A stretch of DNA of 64,000 bases from Escherichia coli (lineage in GTDB: Bacteria > Pseudomonadota > Gammaproteobacteria > Enterobacterales > Enterobacteriaceae). The stretch lies in assembly GCF_001677475.2 (NCBI RefSeq), contig NZ_CP015229.1. One strand, written 5' to 3'. A program made the position numbers and the translations under genes. Below, one piece after another: positions 7,515 to 45,736 of the stretch. Within the stretch, counting starts at the first letter, position 1, and each line of letters begins with the position of its first letter. The notes beneath the pieces were generated by a model. It was not told the DNA's origin and searched no databases. It worked only from the letters and a program-made list of their open reading frames with translations.

Positions 7515-7570
7515 GTCAATTTGACTATTGATATTGTCATATTGACCATTTTATTGATAGTCATTTTGAC
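7515..7570. promoter_or_regulatory. Three NorR enhancer sites of GT-N7-AC type
   Basis: gtcaatttgac (7515-7525), gtcatattgac (7537-7547), gtcattttgac (7560-7570) read directly; matches the known NorR site architecture upstream of norV. Confidence 0.85.
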
Positions 7571-7625
7571 TACTCACTAATGAGCATAAATTAATTTATA
7601 CATTAAAAACAATCAGATAAAAAAC

Positions 7626-7640
7626 TGGCACGCAATCTGC
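7626..7640 (+). promoter_or_regulatory. Sigma54 (-24/-12) promoter of norVW
   Basis: TGGCAC-gcaat-CTGC about 50 nt upstream of norV ATG, downstream of the NorR sites. Confidence 0.8.
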
Positions 7641-7688
7641 AATTAACAAGACATCTTTTTAGAACACGCTGAATAAATTGAGGTTGCT

Positions 7689-10386: not shown

Positions 10387-12639
10387 TTATCCGTTCTGGA
10401 CTTCCCCTGCCAACCAACGCGCCGCAGCAATAACCCCCTGCCCCAGAGACAAACCGCCATCACCTGCCGGTAAACTCTGTGGAAAGAGCAATGTGAAATC
10501 AGCGAGATAATGCGCCAGACGTGCACGCAGCAAACGGTTATGAATAACCCCGCCGCTAAATACCAGCGTAGTGATACCGTGCATCGTGGCCTGCTCACGC
10601 ATCAATGCGGCAAAACCCTGCGCCAGCGTATCATGAAACGCCCACGCGCGTTGATTAACCGGTGCCTGCCAGTTCAGCCACTGCTGCCAGAAGGTGGCGA
10701 GATCCAGTTGATTGTCCACCAGCGGCATCGTCACCGGATGCGTCACTCCGTGGCACGAAGCTGCGAGCGCCTCCAGAGCACAAGCCGCTTCACCTTCATA
10801 ACTTAACGTGGCTGGCGCACAACCCAGTGCCGCCGCCACAGCATCGAACAAACGCCCACACGATGACGCCAGCGGCGCGTTAATTCCACGCTCAATGGCC
10901 CGCGCCAGCACGCTCCAGTTTTGCTGTTGCACACTTGCCGTTTCAGGGTAATTCTGCCACTGCGGCACAAAGCGCAGGCACTGCGCCAGCAGGTTACGCC
11001 ACGGCTGCTTTGCAGCCAAATCGCCCCCCGGAAGCGCCACCGCAGGCAAGCCGCCCAGGTGCTCACATTCGCGATAGTTCACCCGCAGGCACTCGCCGCC
11101 CCACAAAGCGCCGTTCTCCCCCATACCGATACCGTCGAGCGTCAACGCAATGACATCACCGCCATCCAGCGGCCAGTGATGTTCTGCCAGACACGCCGCT
11201 GCGTGGGCATGATGATGAAGCACCGTTTGCGTCGGCAGATTCATTTCGCTCGCCCACTGGCTGGAGACATAGCCCGGATGCACGTCATGCACAACGTATT
11301 GCGGGGTAAAATCGTAGATGTTTTGCATCAGGCGTAACGCTTCGCGCCACTGCATCTGGATGCCATCGTCACTTAAATCGCCCAGATGCTGACTCAACAC
11401 CGCTTGCTCACCGCGCACCAGGCAGAAGGTATTTTTCAGATCCGCGCCGAGACACAGCACAGGCGGAACATTTTTAAAGCCCGGAGGCAAAGCCAGCGCA
11501 TCCGGCACATACCCCCGCGAACGGCGCAGCATTTCGCCGCTTTCGCGCACCACCGAATCATCCATCCGCTGCACGATGTCGCGGTTATGTATCAAGAATC
11601 CGTCGGCAATGCCCTGCAAATCCGCCAGCGCCTGTTCGTTGCTGATAGCTGGTGGTTTACCGCTCAGGTTGCCGGAGGTCATCACCAGCGGGCATTGCAG
11701 TTCCTGTAACAGCAAATGCTGGAGCGGGTTCGCAGGCAACATTACCCCGACTTCGTTAAGGCCAGGGGCGATATCATCACAAAGCTCAGGTACATATTTT
11801 TTATCCACCAGCACAATCGGCGCGGCGGGCGTGGTAAGCAACTGGCGCGCAGCGTCTGGTAAACCGTCAGCCACTGGCAACATGACCGCCAGCGGTTTCG
11901 CCGGGCGATGTTTGCGCGCCCGAAGTGTCGCCACCGCGTTACTGTTACGTGCATCGCAGGCAAGATGAAATCCGCCAATCCCTTTGATGGCGACAATGTT
12001 GCCCATTTTTAACTGTGCGATAGCTGCCTGTAATGCCGCCTCTTGTTCCGCATGTTCATCATGACTTACCCATTCAAGATGGGGGCCACACTCCGGGCAG
12101 GCCACCGGCTGGGCGTGGAAGCGACGATCGAGCGGGTCACAGTACTCTTTGTCACAAGCCGGACACAGCGGAAACGCCGCCATCACGGTAAACGGGCGAT
12201 CGTAAGGCATGGCGCGAATAATGGTGAAACGCGGGCCACAGTGGGTACAGTTGATAAACGGATAACGCCAGCGTCGTTCGCCTGGGGTATTCATTTCGGC
12301 AAGGCAAGCAGGGCAAGTCGCGGCATCGGGAACAATTTGCGTATTCATGACGCCACCCGCGCTCTGGCGGATGGTGAACTCAGTGGGCAGTTGTGACCAG
12401 ATAAACGGCTCACGCTCGACGCTATCAATACGCGCCAGTGGCGGGCAGTGCTGATGCAATTGAACAAGAAACGCTTCCGGATCTTCCAGCAGCCGGACTT
12501 CTACGCCATCGCCGTCATTACAGACATCGCCGTGAAGATTTAATTGCTGTGCCAGTTGCCAGACAAACGGACGAAAACCGACGCCCTGCACTTTGCCACG
12601 AATACGCAGTTGGACACCGCAAGATGTGTTTTTTGCCAT
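10387..12639 (-). CDS. hypF: [NiFe]-hydrogenase maturation carbamoyltransferase HypF
   Basis: Start set to ATG at 12637-12639 ([24 protein letters not shown], acylphosphatase domain) giving 750 aa; zinc-finger CxxC pairs and YrdC/Kae1-like domains follow. The track start at 12711 is an upstream extension. Confidence 0.92.
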
Positions 12640-12791
12640 TAAGTTATTCCCGCCATCATGAATTGCGTAACCCGCCCAGCCGGACACGACAGCGTCGCAT
12701 CCGGCAGTCACAGGTCGGCGATACCGCCCGCTTCGTATTCTACGAATATTTCCGGGAATTCCTTTGATGCCAGAACAGTTCTGTAAGATTT

Positions 12792-13319
12792 TTAGAACAT
12801 CAGCGCCGTACGGCGACGTTTTTCTGCGCTCAGTTGTTCAAGTTTATTACGATCGACACAAATCAGCGCATGAGTCGGGCAAGCCGCCATACACGCCGGG
12901 CCGTCTTCACGATGGTTGCACAGGTCGCATTTATTGGCTTCGGCTTTGTCAGCTCGTACGTTAAGTCCTGCGCCGCTGTTGCGAATCACCGGACGTACCA
13001 CCACTTCCATCGCGCCATACGGGCAAGCCACAACGCAGGTTTTGCAACCAATACAACGTTCCTGCATCACATGAACAAACCCTTTATCACGACTGATAGC
13101 ACCATTCGGGCAGACGTTAGCGCACGGTGCATCTTCACACTGACGGCAAACTGTCGCCGTGGAAATGTTCACACCTTTAATGACATGGATTCGCGGTAAA
13201 AAAGTTTCCGGGGTCAGCGATGCACAGTCCTGATTCTCCTGATGAGAAACCACGCACGCCACTTCACAGGTACGGCAACCAATACATTTACTCGCGTCAG
13301 CAATGATGAAACGGTTCAT
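12792..13319 (-). CDS. hydN: Formate-regulon electron-transfer ferredoxin-like protein (4x[4Fe-4S])
   Basis: ATG at 13317-13319 ([22 protein letters not shown]) preceded by GGAG; 175 aa with four CxxCxxCxxxCP-type motifs. The track's 5-codon extension could not be reproduced from the printed bases. Confidence 0.9.
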
Positions 13320-13423
13320 CAAATTCTCCAGCAATAACAGTTAATGCGCCGATACATTCACAAATCATGCCAGTTTTTAATACACTGTTATTTAAGGAAA
13401 TTAATTTCTGTAATGCAGGAAAA

Positions 13424-13460
13424 ATGATGTCATCGACACTAGTGACGATGACATGTGATG
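13424..13460. promoter_or_regulatory. FhlA-UAS-like motif upstream of hydN-hypF
   Basis: aatgatgtcatcgacactagtgacgatgacatgtgatgaca shares the TGTCAT...TCGACA core with the two hyc/hyp UAS copies in this window. Confidence 0.5.
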
Positions 13461-13467
13461 ACAATTT

Positions 13468-14481
13468 TTATCGCGAAAGAGCAATGAGTGAGTCGCGGCG
13501 GATCAGTTTTCCGCTGAAGGTTTTCGGCGGTGAGAAATCCCCGCCATCGAGCATAAAAATCAGCCGTCCAATAATTTCCTGAATCATCTCAGTCACCGGA
13601 ATTTTTACGCTGGAGAGCGCCGGAACGATATAGGGGGCAATGGCGATATCATCGAATCCGATAACTGACACCTGCTCTGGCACCGCTACGCCGCGCTCGT
13701 GTAACGCTTTCATCGCACCTATCGCCATATCGTCGTTACTGGCAACTAACGCGCTAAATTTAGCCCCACGTTCGAGCAACGTTTCTACCCCTTCGGCACC
13801 GCTGGCGGGCGTCCATTTACCGTTAGCGATAAGTTTTTCATTGAACGCAATACCATGCTGCGCCAGCGCGTCTTTATATCCGGCAAGACGTTCAATGCTG
13901 GTGGGGGAATCCATCGAGCCGGTAAGGAAAGCAATCTCCTGATGTCCGGCGTTTATCAACTCTGCCACGGCGTTAAAGCTGGTCTGTTTATGATCGCACC
14001 AGACGCTATGGCTGCTGTTTTTGCGCAGGCGGCGATTAAGCACCATTATCGGCTGACTGTGTGCGTCAATGATGTCATCAATCTCATCCACGCTTAAAAA
14101 ACGCGGGTAAATCATAATGGCGTCGCAGCGCAAATCCAGCAGATACTGAATCGCCTGGCGCTCTTCTTCGGCGCTATGTTTACCATCTGCCAATAGCAAC
14201 TGTCGCCCTTTCTCTTCCGCCATTCGCGCGGCATGAAACAGTAATTCACTAAAATAAATGCCGTGGTAAAGCGTGTTGGTCACTACCAGCCCCAGCGTCT
14301 GAGTACTCTTCGCCGACAGATTGCGCGCCAGCAAATTTGGGCGGTAACCGCTCTCTTCTACCGCCTGAAACACGCGATCTTTCGTCTCCTGGCTGACGTA
14401 GCCATTACCTGAAAGCACGCGGGAAACGGTCGCTTTTGAAACCCCGGCGCGCTTCGCCACTTCCAGCATCGTCGTCATCAT
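13468..14481 (-). CDS. ascG: asc operon repressor, LacI/GalR family
   Basis: ORF with N-terminal HTH MLEVAKRAGVSKATVSRVL and periplasmic-binding-protein-like core. Start chosen at the MMTTML methionine (ATG 14479-14481); the adjacent ATG at 14478 is equally possible. Confidence 0.88.
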   Translation of the reverse strand: MMTTMLEVAKRAGVSKATVSRVLSGNGYVSQETKDRVFQAVEESGYRPNLLARNLSAKSTQTLGLVVTNTLYHGIYFSELLFHAARMAEEKGRQLLLADGKHSAEEERQAIQYLLDLRCDAIMIYPRFLSVDEIDDIIDAHSQPIMVLNRRLRKNSSHSVWCDHKQTSFNAVAELINAGHQEIAFLTGSMDSPTSIERLAGYKDALAQHGIAFNEKLIANGKWTPASGAEGVETLLERGAKFSALVASNDDMAIGAMKALHERGVAVPEQVSVIGFDDIAIAPYIVPALSSVKIPVTEMIQEIIGRLIFMLDGGDFSPPKTFSGKLIRRDSLIALSR

Positions 14482-14564
14482 TTTCATCCCTTTACACGCA
14501 ATCAACGCAGTGTACTGCACCGTTTGCCGATTGTCCTTGCGCAATCGGCGGGAAAAATATTCAG

Positions 14565-14578
14565 GTGACCGGTTTCAC
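14565..14578. promoter_or_regulatory. Candidate AscG operator (near-palindrome gtgaccggtttcac)
   Basis: Read directly in the ascG/ascF divergent region; LacI-family operator-like half-site symmetry. Confidence 0.5.
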
Positions 14579-14640
14579 AAATATAAAAAATGAACAATTA
14601 ACTCTCTTGCTTATTCAGTGACAACTATTCATGATTTTGT

Positions 14641-14652
14641 GAAACCGGTTTC
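14641..14652. promoter_or_regulatory. Candidate AscG operator (perfect palindrome gaaaccggtttc)
   Basis: 12 bp perfect palindrome sharing the core of the site at 14565-14578. Confidence 0.55.
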
Positions 14653-14737
14653 CTAATTCCGTTTCAGCATCGGCATTTTTCCGTCACGTCGACTGATAAC
14701 AACTACATCTACCCTACTGATAACAGGATAAAATCCG

Positions 14738-17628
<2,891 letters not shown>

Positions 17629-17635
17629 GTAACAT

Positions 17636-17718
17636 TGCCGGATGTGGCGTGAACGCCTTATCCGGCTTACATAGTTCGTGCGACATGTAGGCCCGATAAG
17701 CGCAGCGCATCGGGCAAT
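17636..17718. repeat. Pair of inverted REP elements at the 3-prime end of ascB
   Basis: gccggatgtggcgtgaacgccttatccggcttac and gtaggcccgataagcgcagcgcatcgggca; the minus ORF 17381..17710 is the REP translation artefact. Confidence 0.85.
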
Positions 17719-17741
17719 CTGGAGTTTGGCATCAGTCAAAA

Positions 17742-18161
17742 TCAAAGAAACCATTCCGGCTTAACGCCAAATCGGGCTGAAAGTGCCTTAATATGGGATA
17801 TTGTCAGGGATCGTTGCCCAGACAAAATCTGACTGACCAGGGATTTAGAGCCGATTTCGTTCTTCAAATCCGCGTAGGTCAGATTATGTTGATCAATCAG
17901 CGTACGAAGTAACGCCACGCCAACCGGCATTGCTGCAACGGCTTTGTCGAACTCTGCAAACTTTTCGTTATTGTTTTCATATTCTGCAATGCGGCTCGCC
18001 AGAAAGTCGATAAGTGGATTGGTGTCATCTTCTTCAATCAAATATTCGACCAGTTCCAGTGCTTCACGATAATCATCTTCTGAGTCACTGCCTCCCAGAA
18101 AGGGGACTGCATTGACCAGTTCTCTTGTTGCTTTAACAGCGCGTGCAGCATTAGCAGTCAT
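17742..18161 (-). CDS. HigA-like antitoxin / XRE-family HTH protein (no intact partner toxin)
   Basis: 139 aa ORF with ATG at 18159-18161; C-terminal HTH IGSKSLVSQILSGQRSLTISHIKALSARFGV and overall resemblance to E. coli HigA as recalled. Confidence 0.75.
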   Translation of the reverse strand: MTANAARAVKATRELVNAVPFLGGSDSEDDYREALELVEYLIEEDDTNPLIDFLASRIAEYENNNEKFAEFDKAVAAMPVGVALLRTLIDQHNLTYADLKNEIGSKSLVSQILSGQRSLTISHIKALSARFGVKPEWFL

Positions 18162-18396
18162 TCTTGGTTCTCTCTGTAGTATCGTGTCAGACGCCCACTT
18201 TTCTAAAATGCCAGTTTTGATCGGTATAATAAGGCATGGTCAGGAGAGGTTTCAGCGCCCGCTTTTGTGCGTATTCGCTGTCACTCATCGGCAGATATTC
18301 GGTAAAGCTGGTGGCCTACGCAGGAAGCACTAAGCTCAATAAAAAAGCGCACATCCCTGTCCTGATTTTCAATTCCCTGAATTCCTTAATGAAGAA

Positions 18397-20585: not shown

Positions 20586-22295
20586 TTATTTCAGCGGCGA
20601 GTTTTTACGCTCAATGCTGTAACGCTCGAGTTCTTTGTACGGCACCACTTTGCTCTTCTTCTTACGCACATCGACCACGGTCATGCGGTCGGTACAGGAA
20701 TAGCAAGGGTCGAGGCTACCGATAATCAGCGGCGCATCAGAAACGGTGTTGCCGCGCAGCATGTAGCGCAGGGTCGGCCAGTTCGCATAGGTCGCGGCAC
20801 GGCAGCGCCAGCGGTACAGCTTCTGGTTGTCACCGGTCATGCTCCAGTGGATATCATCGCCACGCGGCGCTTCGGCAAAGCCCAACGCAAAACGGTGTGG
20901 AATGTAGGTGAATCCTTCCACCGCCAGCGGACCGCCTGGCAGGTTGTCCAGTCCGTAGTCGATCATATTGAGCGAGGTAAAGACTTCGTTGATACGCACT
21001 TTCAGACGCGAAATAACGTCGCAGCCCTGCTCGCTGTGAACTTCCATCGGCAGCAGGCCATAACCGACAAACGGGTGATCAGCACGGGTATCACGAGCGT
21101 GGCCGCTGGCGCGGACCATCGGGCCAACGTTACTGAAATCGCGGGCAATTTCCGGGTCCAGACGACCAATGCCGTCAGTGCGTTGTTCCATGTTCGGTGT
21201 GCTCAGCAGCACGTCCACCAGCTCCTGCACTTCACGACGCATCTGTTGCGCCAGCTGGCGGGTCTGGATCATGTCATCTTTCAGCAGATCGCGACGAATC
21301 CCGCCGATCAGGTTCAGGCCGTAGGTTTTACGCGCACCGGTAAGGATCTCCGCCATTTTCATGGAGGTTTCACGCACGCGGAAGAACTGCATAAAGCCGG
21401 AGTCGAAGCCGGTAAAGTGGCAGGCGAGGCCGAGGTTGAGCAGATGCGAGTGCAGGCGTTCCACTTCCAGCAGAATAGCGCGGATCATCTGCGCACGTTC
21501 CGGCACCACGATGCCCATCGCATTCTCAACGGAGGTGGTGTACGCCGTGCTGTGGGCGAAGCCGCAGATGCCGCAAACACGGTCAGAGAGGAAGGTCACT
21601 TCGTTGTAACCCATGCGGGTCTCCGCCAGTTTTTCCATGCCGCGATGGACGTAGAACAGGCGGTAGTCGGCGTCGATAATGTTTTCGCCATCGACGAACA
21701 GACGGAAGTGACCCGGTTCGTCGGAAGTGACGTGCAGCGGACCAATCGGCACGACGTTGTTTTTCTTGTCGCCCAGTTCGTTGATGAACTCGTAGGTTTC
21801 AGCATCAGTAGTCGGTGCCGGACGCTGACGATAATCCATGCTGTCTTTACGCAGCGGATAAAGTTCATCCGGCCAGTCATCCGGCAGCACCAGACGACGT
21901 TCATCCGGCAAACCAACCGGAATCAAACCGTACATATCGCGCACTTCACGCTCGCCCCACACCGCCGCCGGAACGCGCGGCGTCACGGACGGATATTCCG
22001 GTTTGTTGGCGTCAACTTCGACGCGAACCGTGATCCAGCACTTAGTCCCCTTCTCCATCGACAGCACGTAATAAACGGCGTAATGACCATTCAGTTTGCG
22101 TTCGTCGTTACCAAACAGCACCGACAGCCAGCCACCCTGCTTGTAGTAGAGAAACTCCACCACTTCCGGCAGATAGTTCACCTTTACGGTCACGGTCAGC
22201 TGATCTTTGGTCTGCCAGGCGTGGTCCAGCACGACGCCCGGAAATGCCTCATTCAGCGCGGCGAGATAATGTTGACCTAATTTTTCTTCAGACAT
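20586..22295 (-). CDS. hycE: Hydrogenase 3 [NiFe] large subunit
   Basis: Start at ATG 22293-22295 (MSEEKLGQHYLAALNEAFPG) gives 569 aa; N-terminal RVCGICGFAH and C-terminal DPCYSCTDR nickel-ligand motifs. Confidence 0.95.
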   Translation of the reverse strand: MSEEKLGQHYLAALNEAFPGVVLDHAWQTKDQLTVTVKVNYLPEVVEFLYYKQGGWLSVLFGNDERKLNGHYAVYYVLSMEKGTKCWITVRVEVDANKPEYPSVTPRVPAAVWGEREVRDMYGLIPVGLPDERRLVLPDDWPDELYPLRKDSMDYRQRPAPTTDAETYEFINELGDKKNNVVPIGPLHVTSDEPGHFRLFVDGENIIDADYRLFYVHRGMEKLAETRMGYNEVTFLSDRVCGICGFAHSTAYTTSVENAMGIVVPERAQMIRAILLEVERLHSHLLNLGLACHFTGFDSGFMQFFRVRETSMKMAEILTGARKTYGLNLIGGIRRDLLKDDMIQTRQLAQQMRREVQELVDVLLSTPNMEQRTDGIGRLDPEIARDFSNVGPMVRASGHARDTRADHPFVGYGLLPMEVHSEQGCDVISRLKVRINEVFTSLNMIDYGLDNLPGGPLAVEGFTYIPHRFALGFAEAPRGDDIHWSMTGDNQKLYRWRCRAATYANWPTLRYMLRGNTVSDAPLIIGSLDPCYSCTDRMTVVDVRKKKSKVVPYKELERYSIERKNSPLK

Positions 22296-25691: not shown

Positions 25692-25748
25692 TTGTCATTT
25701 TTGACGAAAACATGCCGATGAAATGTCATTTTCGACACTCATCGACAC
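25692..25748. promoter_or_regulatory. FhlA UAS copy in the hycA-hycB intergenic region
   Basis: tgtcatttttgacg ... tgtcattttcgacactcatcgacacg; same core as the hycA-hypA UAS. Confidence 0.7.
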
Positions 25749-25797: not shown

Positions 25798-26259
25798 TCA
25801 TGCTGCCGGGCTTTGTCCCTTTACCAGTTGGCTTAAATTCACCGGCACATTGTTTTCAATGGCGGTATATAAGCTGTCGTAAACGCCAGCGATTTTTTCG
25901 AGATAGTGTTCCAGAACCTGTTCGCGATCGCGGATGTTGACCTTGCCATCAATCATGCCGTCAATGCTCAGTTGCGCCTGCGCAATCCGCTGTTTGTCTT
26001 CGCCATCTTTTGTTTCGACGTAATACTCGATGGTGTGGCTGTTAAAGCCATCCGCCAGGGTGACGTAAATGCGAAAATGTTCAAAAAGGACGAAACAGAG
26101 TTCTTTGTCCGGCGCGCAGCTCATGGCGTGATGCAGGCGCGCTTTCGATAACGTGATCCCCTGAACCAGCGAATTGCAGTAGATGTGCCACTGGTCCTGT
26201 AGGCGACGATGCCGCTGTGCGATGTAATCGGCTTTCTCGCTTATTTCCCAAATAGTCAT
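25798..26259 (-). CDS. hycA: Formate hydrogenlyase regulatory protein (FhlA antagonist)
   Basis: 153 aa ORF, first gene of the hyc operon, divergent from hypA. Confidence 0.93.
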   Translation of the reverse strand: MTIWEISEKADYIAQRHRRLQDQWHIYCNSLVQGITLSKARLHHAMSCAPDKELCFVLFEHFRIYVTLADGFNSHTIEYYVETKDGEDKQRIAQAQLSIDGMIDGKVNIRDREQVLEHYLEKIAGVYDSLYTAIENNVPVNLSQLVKGQSPAA

Positions 26260-26367: not shown

Positions 26368-26399
26368 GTGTCGACGTGTCATTTCGACATCATCGACAT
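26368..26399. promoter_or_regulatory. FhlA UAS between divergent hyc and hyp promoters
   Basis: gtgtcgacgtgtcatttcgacatcatcgacat with repeated TCGACA half-sites, centred between the two sigma54 promoters. Confidence 0.75.
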
Positions 26400-27697: not shown

Positions 27698-27960
27698 GCG
27701 TTCCCGGCCAGATCCGCACCATTGACGGTAACCAGGCTAAAGTCGACGTCTGCGGCATTCAGCGCGATGTCGATTTAACGTTAGTCGGCAGCTGCGATGA
27801 AAACGGTCAGCCGCGCGTGGGCCAGTGGGTACTGGTTCACGTTGGCTTTGCCATGAGCGTAATTAATGAAGCCGAAGCACGCGACACTCTCGACGCCTTA
27901 CAAAACATGTTTGACGTTGAGCCGGATGTCGGCGCGCTGTTGTATGGCGAGGAAAAATAA
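27688..27960 (+). CDS. hypC: Hydrogenase maturation chaperone HypC
   Basis: Start at ATG 27688 giving MCIGVPGQI (invariant N-terminal Cys), 90 aa; overlaps hypB stop. Confidence 0.95.
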
Positions 27961-32713: not shown

Positions 32714-32724
32714 GCGCCTTATTT

Positions 32725-32760
32725 GCCGGAGAGTATGGCTCTCCGGCAGATTTATTTCTT
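32725..32760. terminator. Bidirectional rho-independent terminator between mop-like gene (+) and ygbA (-)
   Basis: 9 bp stem gccggagag / ctctccggc with 5 nt loop, followed by agatttatttcttt. Confidence 0.7.
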
Positions 32761-42764: not shown

Positions 42765-42798
42765 AAAAGGTCCGATGAGCATCGGACCTTTTATTTAG
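42765..42798. terminator. Bidirectional rho-independent terminator (ygbN + / ecdD-like -)
   Basis: aaaaag gtccgat gagc atcggac cttttattt: hairpin flanked by an A-run and a T-run. Confidence 0.75.
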
Positions 42799-45684: not shown

Positions 45685-45720
45685 AAAGAAAAAAGGCCAG
45701 CCTCGCTTGAGACTGGCCTT
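45685..45720 (-). terminator. rpoS rho-independent terminator
   Basis: Minus strand reads ggccag-tctcaagcgagg-ctggcc followed by a T-run (A-run on plus at 45685-45694). Confidence 0.8.
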
Positions 45721-45736
45721 TCTGACAGATGCTTAC

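Follow-up and report, generated by a model that had tools for sequence, protein, structure and literature searches.

The ascG-hydN gap as the probable, already described formate-responsive control region of hydN-hypF: an FhlA-type palindrome, an IHF-like site and a sigma-54 promoter

How is transcription of hydN and hypF switched on from the short gap that separates them from ascG, and which protein recognizes the palindromic DNA lying in that gap? The gap measures 148 bp (13320-13467) within a 64-kb stretch of DNA that was analysed as a whole, hereafter the window, and the genes on both of its sides are encoded on the minus strand. It is bordered by the ascG stop codon (13468-13470, minus strand) and by hydN (12792-13319, minus; ATG at 13319-13317), the first gene of the operon, which encodes a ferredoxin-like FeS protein and is preceded by a Shine-Dalgarno sequence GGAG (13326-13329, minus) that is nearly invariant as GGAGAA across the loci compared. 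The second gene, hypF (10387-12639, minus; start placed by analogy with K-12), encodes a carbamoyltransferase of [NiFe] cofactor synthesis. Through FhlA and sigma-54, control at this place makes the synthesis of HydN, which transfers electrons for formate dehydrogenase H, and of HypF, which serves [NiFe] cofactor maturation, dependent on the formate level of the cell.

The gene order in the window is norV-norW, hypF, hydN, ascG, ascF-ascB, hyc and hyp, and the identical order is annotated in K-12 and in all 5,425 matching E. coli genomes. Two open reading frames of a mechanical list cross the gap (13297-13464, minus; 13367-13582, plus), and the gap is non-coding in the K-12 and RefSeq annotation. 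An Rfam scan of the whole 64-kb window returned no family. Read in the direction of hydN, the gap runs from the TAA of ascG through AAATTGTCATCAC ATGTCATCGTCACTAGTGTCGATGACAT CATTTTTCC, then, further on, TAACAGTGTATTA, AAAAC and TGGCATGATTTGTGAA, and finally GGAG and the ATG of hydN. We consider it very probable that this gap is the already characterised formate-responsive control region of hydN-hypF, in which a sigma-54 promoter is preceded by an IHF-like site and, further upstream, by a palindromic enhancer of the FhlA type. According to the accessible parts of the literature, control of hydN-hypF by FhlA/formate and sigma-54, the position of the promoter and its conservation are already published, FhlA control since 1996. 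The relevance of the assignment beyond correct annotation is therefore little.

The DNA itself is somewhat unusual. Over 5 kb (10800-15800) the window is 97.5% identical to K-12, and across 5,426 complete E. coli genomes the best identity around hydN was only 98.5% over 1.9 kb (12700-14600), more divergence than is usual between ordinary E. coli strains. The HydN protein is 100% identical in E. whittamii, in Escherichia sp. E1V33 and in one E. coli strain. The window may thus stem from a divergent Escherichia lineage.

The sigma-54 promoter and the IHF-like site

The preliminary description of this region had found no convincing sigma-54 element by eye and had mentioned, as a poor candidate, a site on the minus strand around 13370-13385. 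We ran the matrix scan that it had proposed, over the whole window and with a published matrix of 186 promoters (Table 2 of PMC7658346; maximum 21.1 bits). The scan assigned 11.17 bits to TGGCATGATTTGTGAA at 13357-13372 on the minus strand, against 1.98 bits for the second-best site of the gap. This score ranks 13th among about 128,000 window positions, and its chance expectation for this gap and strand is roughly 0.01-0.015. The suspected element does exist, then, about 13 nt away from where it had been placed. As a 17-mer, CTGGCATGATTTGTGAA (13357-13373, minus), it carries the -24 GG at 13371-13370 and, at -12, TGAA instead of TGCA (G at 13359, A at 13358). Compared with TGGCAC-N5-TTGCW, the site reads TGGCAT-GATTT-GTGAA: the GG, the ten-base spacing and the TG of the -12 element match, and the C of the GC is changed to A, at a position where 173 of the 186 known sigma-54 promoters of the matrix have C (PMC7658346). 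The weakness of the site lies in its -12 element, and the doubt about it is resolved in favour of the candidate, considering that the identical 17-mer is occupied in K-12 ChIP-seq and that the element is conserved throughout our comparison. This comparison comprised 80 hydN loci, one genome per species from about 20 enterobacterial genera, giving 81 sequences. All 81 have a sigma-54 element on the minus strand with its -24 GG 49-54 nt upstream of the hydN ATG; the -12 tetramer TGAA occurs in 42 of them and TGTA in 10, while 29 have the canonical TGCA.

Published experiments leave little doubt that the promoter is used. In K-12, the sigma-54 ChIP-seq peak OS26 upstream of hydN contains the motif CTGGCATGATTTGTGAA, which is an experimentally confirmed promoter in EcoCyc (PMC4591121), and the 17-mer of the window is the same as that of K-12. 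The authors of the ChIP-seq study had already tabulated the conservation of the hydN site across genera, predicted a start 27 nt from hydN (their Table 1) and recorded a modest signal of 11 at OS26, compared with 91 at hycA and 201 at hypA (PMC4591121). RpoN holoenzyme also binds the hydN/ascG spacer in vitro in gSELEX (PMC8743547). Expression of hydN-hypF in Salmonella depends 13-fold on sigma-54, and ChIP-chip placed a site there at TGGCACGATTCGTGTATA (PMC3844500). Applying the rule of PMC4591121, by which the start lies 19 nt downstream of the motif centre, transcription of hydN-hypF is predicted to begin at 13346 (minus), 27 nt upstream of the ATG. That the hydN promoter is weaker than those of hyc and hyp is suggested by its modest ChIP signal and its weak -12 element. 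More generally, a sigma-54 promoter with a non-canonical -12 element (TGAA) can look poor both by eye and by matrix and yet be real.

Directly upstream of the promoter, TAACAGTGTATTA (13378-13390, minus) resembles an IHF site, with two mismatches to WATCAANNNNTTR over the nine specified positions; it begins 18 nt before the -24 TGG. The best IHF match lies at this offset of -18 in 45 of the 81 loci; irrespective of offset, it is perfect in 13 loci and has one mismatch in a further 26. The hyc promoter of the window has TAACAATAAATTA at the same -18 offset, so that the hydN and hyc promoters align through the IHF-like block, and IHF is a listed activator of hyc and hyp. IHF may bind at hydN as well.

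Two side observations concern the same type of element. A perfect 9-nt inverted repeat, AATAACAGT / ACTGTTATT (13333-13341 and 13384-13392), brackets the sigma-54 promoter, with its arms falling in the IHF-like block and shortly before the Shine-Dalgarno sequence. Escherichia, Salmonella and Citrobacter have mostly retained this repeat, Klebsiella has not, and it may be due to chance. Moreover, a strong sigma-54-like site, TGGCACATCTACTGCA (26175-26190, minus), lies inside hycA (ATG at 26259) in sense orientation, within the codons Q-W-H-I-Y-C-N; it scores 14.99 bits, rank 4 in the window, and is the same in K-12. The main text and the accessible supplements of the sigma-54 ChIP-seq study do not list it (PMC4591121). 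With the strong peaks of hycA and hypA only about 120-250 bp away, it may have escaped resolution in ChIP-seq.

A palindrome with invariant arms

The preliminary description had quoted two strings as the activator motif, and both are indeed in the sequence on the plus strand, tgtcatcgacact at 13428-13440 and gatgacatgtgatgaca at 13447-13463. They turn out to be parts of one near-perfect 28-bp palindrome (13427-13454) plus an additional half-site (13457-13463). We regard the palindrome as the core of the enhancer (UAS); in the minus-strand reading it is ATGTCATCGTCAC-TA-GTGTCGATGACAT, with 13 of 14 arm positions complementary. Its conserved arms occupy 13443-13453 and 13428-13438 around a free centre at 13439-13442, and the 14-mer CGTCACTAGTGTCG forms its inner part (13434-13447). 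The additional half-site, TGTCATC on the minus strand, starts 4 nt past the ascG stop codon, and its TGTC precedes that of the palindrome's left arm by 10 bp; a [TC]GTC-type element at about this offset is moderately conserved across genera. Downstream of the palindrome centre, the -24 GG follows after 69.5 bp and the predicted start after about 94.5 bp. Counting the hydN palindrome, the 64-kb window has four places where inverted arms of 13 nt or more show one mismatch or none; shuffled sequence yields about 0.5 such palindromes per window. The three others, at 42765-42792 (AAAAGGTCCGATGAGCATCGGACCTTTT), 45692-45721 (AAAGGCCAGCCTCGCTTGAGACTGGCCTTT) and 32721-32751 (ATTTGCCGGAGAGTATGGCTCTCCGGCAGAT), have G+C-rich stems, with A and T runs on either side of the first two, and probably act as intrinsic terminators in both directions.

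Across the comparative set, the palindrome is present as TGTCATCGTCA-N4-TGWCGATGACA in 80 of the 81 sequences. Its arms hardly vary, in contrast to the 4 nt of the centre, for which 20 different sequences occur. Information per column is near maximal over the arms and the promoter and drops to near zero in the spacer of about 30 nt that follows the palindrome, which in the window is A/T-rich (13391-13419, minus) and whose length varies between lineages by about one helical turn. Accordingly, two classes of spacing separate the palindrome centre from the -24 GG: 30 loci have 58-61 bp and 50 have 68-71 bp, while the range 62-67 bp is empty. These classes differ by about one helical turn, so that the enhancer keeps to the same helical face with respect to the promoter. 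Only one arm position varies (T/A); in 25 of the 81 sequences it leaves the two arms unpaired at this place, and compensatory changes were never seen. Arms that are conserved base for base and that lose pairing without compensation point to a protein-binding site rather than an RNA stem. Invariant arms, a free centre, a 14-mer nested in the palindrome and two distance classes would be a modest refinement of what is known of this region.

The neighbourhood of the palindrome is less constant than the palindrome itself. In Salmonella arizonae, hycI and not ascG lies upstream of hydN, and the palindrome is retained; Klebsiella has an ascG-like gene of the LacI family at this place. Because the palindrome is kept despite the exchange of hycI and ascG upstream, the element belongs to hydN. 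With regard to operon arrangement, hydN directly follows hycI in Salmonella enterica subsp. arizonae (locus L011, 1839-2500), so that the hyc operon adjoins hydN-hypF, while in Escherichia ascG-ascFB lies between the two (13468-18200 in the window). The asc genes may have been inserted beside the hydN enhancer, or they may have been lost from other lineages.

Which protein recognizes the palindrome

The claim that hydN-hypF is under formate/FhlA control agrees with the literature (PMC11841067; PMC3844500), and our comparative and k-mer analyses fit the palindrome as the enhancer. A 2025 review describes enhancement of hydN-hypF expression by formate-FhlA (PMC11841067), and hydN-hypF is assigned to FhlA, with reference to Maier et al. 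1996, in the accessible parts of two further papers (PMC3844500, PMC4987338). The preliminary description had based its claim on a TGTCAT/TCGACA core in common with the two hyc/hyp UAS copies, and this likeness was borne out: the 9-mer TGTCGATGA occurs six times in the window against 0.49 expected. Three of the copies lie in the hydN gap (13430-13438), in the hycA-hycB gap (25739-25747) and in the hycA-hypA gap (26390-26398).

The more specific question is whether the palindrome is a site for FhlA, and here the evidence is mixed. A published FhlA matrix of 14 positions, built from 13 sites (PMC7658346), gave its top scores in the window to the two hyc/hyp enhancers (17.5 and 16.3 bits). In the hydN gap its best match reached 7.0 bits, rank 208 in the window, and about 0.5 such matches are expected there by chance. 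We do not read this low score as absence of a site, because the matrix rests on 13 sites of which none starts with C. The consensus CATTTCGTACGAAATG, attributed in the accessible part of its source to Leonhartsberger 2000, was not found as such at hydN, where the arms have CATCG in place of the CATTTCG of that consensus. On the favourable side, the half-sites and spacing of CGTCACTAGTGTCG are the same as those of CGTCAAAACTGACG upstream of fdhF, of CGACACGGGTGTCG upstream of hyfA and of the hyc sites. Expressed as YGWCR-N4-TGWCR, this pattern has 14 matches in the window against 4.35 expected, among them all three FhlA-controlled gaps (hydN at 13434-13447), and exactly one match in each of the K-12 fdhF and hyfA loci, at the expected upstream position; these statistics are inflated because the pattern was devised after the sites had been seen. 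We therefore turned to a count that is free of this bias, namely the k-mers that each 51-nt stretch has in common with four other enhancers (hyc, hyp, fdhF and hyf). The stretch 13420-13470 has 24 6-mers and 14 7-mers in common with them, while other 51-nt stretches outside enhancers have means of 4.6 and 1.4 and maxima of 20 and 11, respectively. A literature search for genome-wide FhlA binding data (ChIP-exo) found none. On balance the evidence, the assignment in the literature included, is favourable, and FhlA would contact the hydN palindrome.

The pattern also matches within coding regions, at 14064-14077 (inside ascG), 2104-2117, 21719-21732, 22010-22023 and 27882-27895. Examples are the palindromic CGTCAATGATGTCA inside ascG and TGTCGATGGTGTCA, which scores 15.0 bits on the published FhlA matrix. 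Given that 4.35 matches are expected per window, these coding-region matches are probably due to chance. The GlrR-type arrangement TGTC-N10-GACA and the NorR-type arrangement GTCA-N3-TGAC were compared with the palindrome by eye and ruled out on spacing.

Could the palindrome serve some other purpose? It might mainly be an intrinsic (rho-independent) terminator of ascG, whose end at 13468 precedes it on the strand of hydN, and stop ascG transcripts before hydN. Its RNA would form a hairpin of 9+2 bp within a 71-nt fold (-15.5 kcal/mol, z = -2.1), with five U 3 nt later; the corresponding run of five T (13420-13424, minus), 3 nt past the palindrome, is retained in K-12 and several other Escherichia-type sequences. 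Most, though not all, of the Escherichia-type loci examined have it, and joined with the hairpin it could make a weak intrinsic terminator of ascG. However, a terminator scan of 13200-13700 returned 0 sites. The stem is rich in A/T and interrupted by an internal mismatch, and E. albertii and other genera keep the palindrome but lack the T run. In Salmonella, moreover, there is no ascG upstream to be terminated but hycI. Arms that stay conserved without compensatory change and lose pairing in 25 of 81 sequences show the pattern of a protein site, and the phased distance between palindrome and sigma-54 promoter likewise speaks against a terminator. As the main function of the palindrome, termination is thus very unlikely; as a secondary role confined to Escherichia, termination of ascG is conceivable, although we would not expect it. 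Chance would be another answer: the likeness of the motif and the weak -24/-12 element could be accidental, with hydN driven by read-through or by a sigma-70 promoter, and 12 window positions, mostly not known promoters, do exceed 11.17 bits on the sigma-54 matrix. A sigma-70 scan of 13200-13700 found a single sigma-70-like match in the gap, on the wrong strand and at chance level. Binding of sigma-54 at hydN by ChIP-seq, ChIP-chip and gSELEX refutes the chance reading for practical purposes, and the presence of both elements in 80-81 of the 81 sequences at fixed or phased distances, together with the palindrome and k-mer statistics, also goes against it. We give it next to no probability.

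If the palindrome is an enhancer for a sigma-54 activator, this need not be FhlA. Its paralogue HyfR could take its place, or NorR, which is encoded about 6 kb away, and the low score of hydN on the FhlA matrix leaves room for another activator. Each arm (GTCATCGTCAC, GTGTCGATGAC) fits the NorR core GT-N7-AC, and the NorR sites of the window (7515-7570, GTCA-N3-TGAC) have GTCA/TGAC half-sites in common with FhlA-type sites. Real NorR enhancers, however, have three GTCA-N3-TGAC repeats spaced 21-24 bp apart, all three of which are required, whereas the hydN arms are two units 13 bp apart, each matching one half of a NorR site. The k-mers in common with FhlA enhancers far exceed those of every other stretch of the window, the NorR region included, and the accessible literature places hydN-hypF in the FhlA/formate regulon. 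An activator other than FhlA is accordingly highly improbable as the main ligand of the palindrome; HyfR as an additional binder is possible.

FhlA thus remains our preferred activator, and a bolder version of this reading deserves mention. The hydN enhancer might be a distinct FhlA site of unusual compactness and symmetry, in which a 14-mer (CGTCA-N4-TGWCG) is embedded in a 26-28-bp perfect palindrome with four GTCA/TGAC half-sites, a fifth half-site lies one helical turn upstream, and the distance to a promoter with a weak -12 element is phased; in Escherichia it would possibly act in addition as an ascG terminator that insulates hydN from read-through. Taken as a whole, this proposal is speculative and, in our judgement, unlikely. 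If true, the hydN enhancer would offer a clean natural case on which to settle how FhlA recognizes DNA. Published descriptions of FhlA recognition conflict, as far as the accessible parts of the sources go, a matrix of the TGTC-N6-GACA type standing against CATTTCGTACGAAATG, and the conserved hydN enhancer is missed by the published 14-nt FhlA matrix.

Proposed mechanism and comparison with known systems

Food for a working model is provided by the arrangement of the elements. RNA polymerase with sigma-54 would first be held in a closed complex at the -24/-12 element (13357-13373), while FhlA, sensing formate, would occupy the palindrome (13427-13454), whose centre lies some 95 bp upstream of the start, and probably the additional half-site (13457-13463) too. 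If the IHF-like site (13378-13390) bends the DNA, FhlA on the enhancer could touch the polymerase. Formate-bound FhlA would then hydrolyse ATP to open the promoter, and hydN-hypF mRNA would start near 13346. A closed complex, an activator bound at an enhancer, a DNA bend and ATP-driven opening make up the standard enhancer-dependent sigma-54 mechanism.

The closest known system is the hydN-hypF promoter region of K-12 (hydNp; OS26), which is the same locus in the same gene order, norVW-hypF-hydN-ascG-ascFB-hyc-hyp. The 28-bp palindrome, the 17-nt sigma-54 motif and the predicted 27-nt leader are all identical to those of the window. Six of 165 upstream positions differ between the two; the palindrome, the promoter element and the Shine-Dalgarno sequence are free of these differences.

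A related system lies within the window itself, the NorR enhancer of norVW (about 7515-7641). Like hydN, it combines a GAF-domain enhancer-binding protein and GTCA/TGAC half-sites with an A/T-rich block at -24 and a sigma-54 promoter; unlike hydN, it responds to NO through another activator and differs in half-site spacing and in the number and spacing of its sites. The NorR sites of norV are GTCAATTTGAC, GTCATATTGAC and GTCATTTTGAC, with centres 21 and 24 bp apart, and the strong norV sigma-54 promoter (7626-7641) scores 16.29 bits, with the A/T-rich block AATCAGATAAAAAACTGG directly upstream of -24. This block resembles those of hydN and hyc, a layout common to the three sigma-54 promoters of the window.

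The hyc and hyp enhancers under FhlA are a further comparison. They, too, are GTC/GAC-rich inverted repeats of the form YGWCR-N4-TGWCR, have the 9-mer TGTCGATGA in common with hydN and lie roughly 70-80 bp upstream of the -24 GG, and hyc, like hydN, has an IHF-like block directly upstream of -24 at equal offset. In contrast to hydN, the 14-mers of the hyc/hyp enhancers stand apart from one another, by 31 bp in the hycA-hycB gap, and reach 12-17.5 bits on the published FhlA matrix. At hydN, by comparison, one 14-mer of 7.0 bits is nested in a longer palindrome with a half-site 10 bp upstream, the -12 element is non-canonical and sigma-54 occupancy is about 10-20 times lower (PMC4591121).
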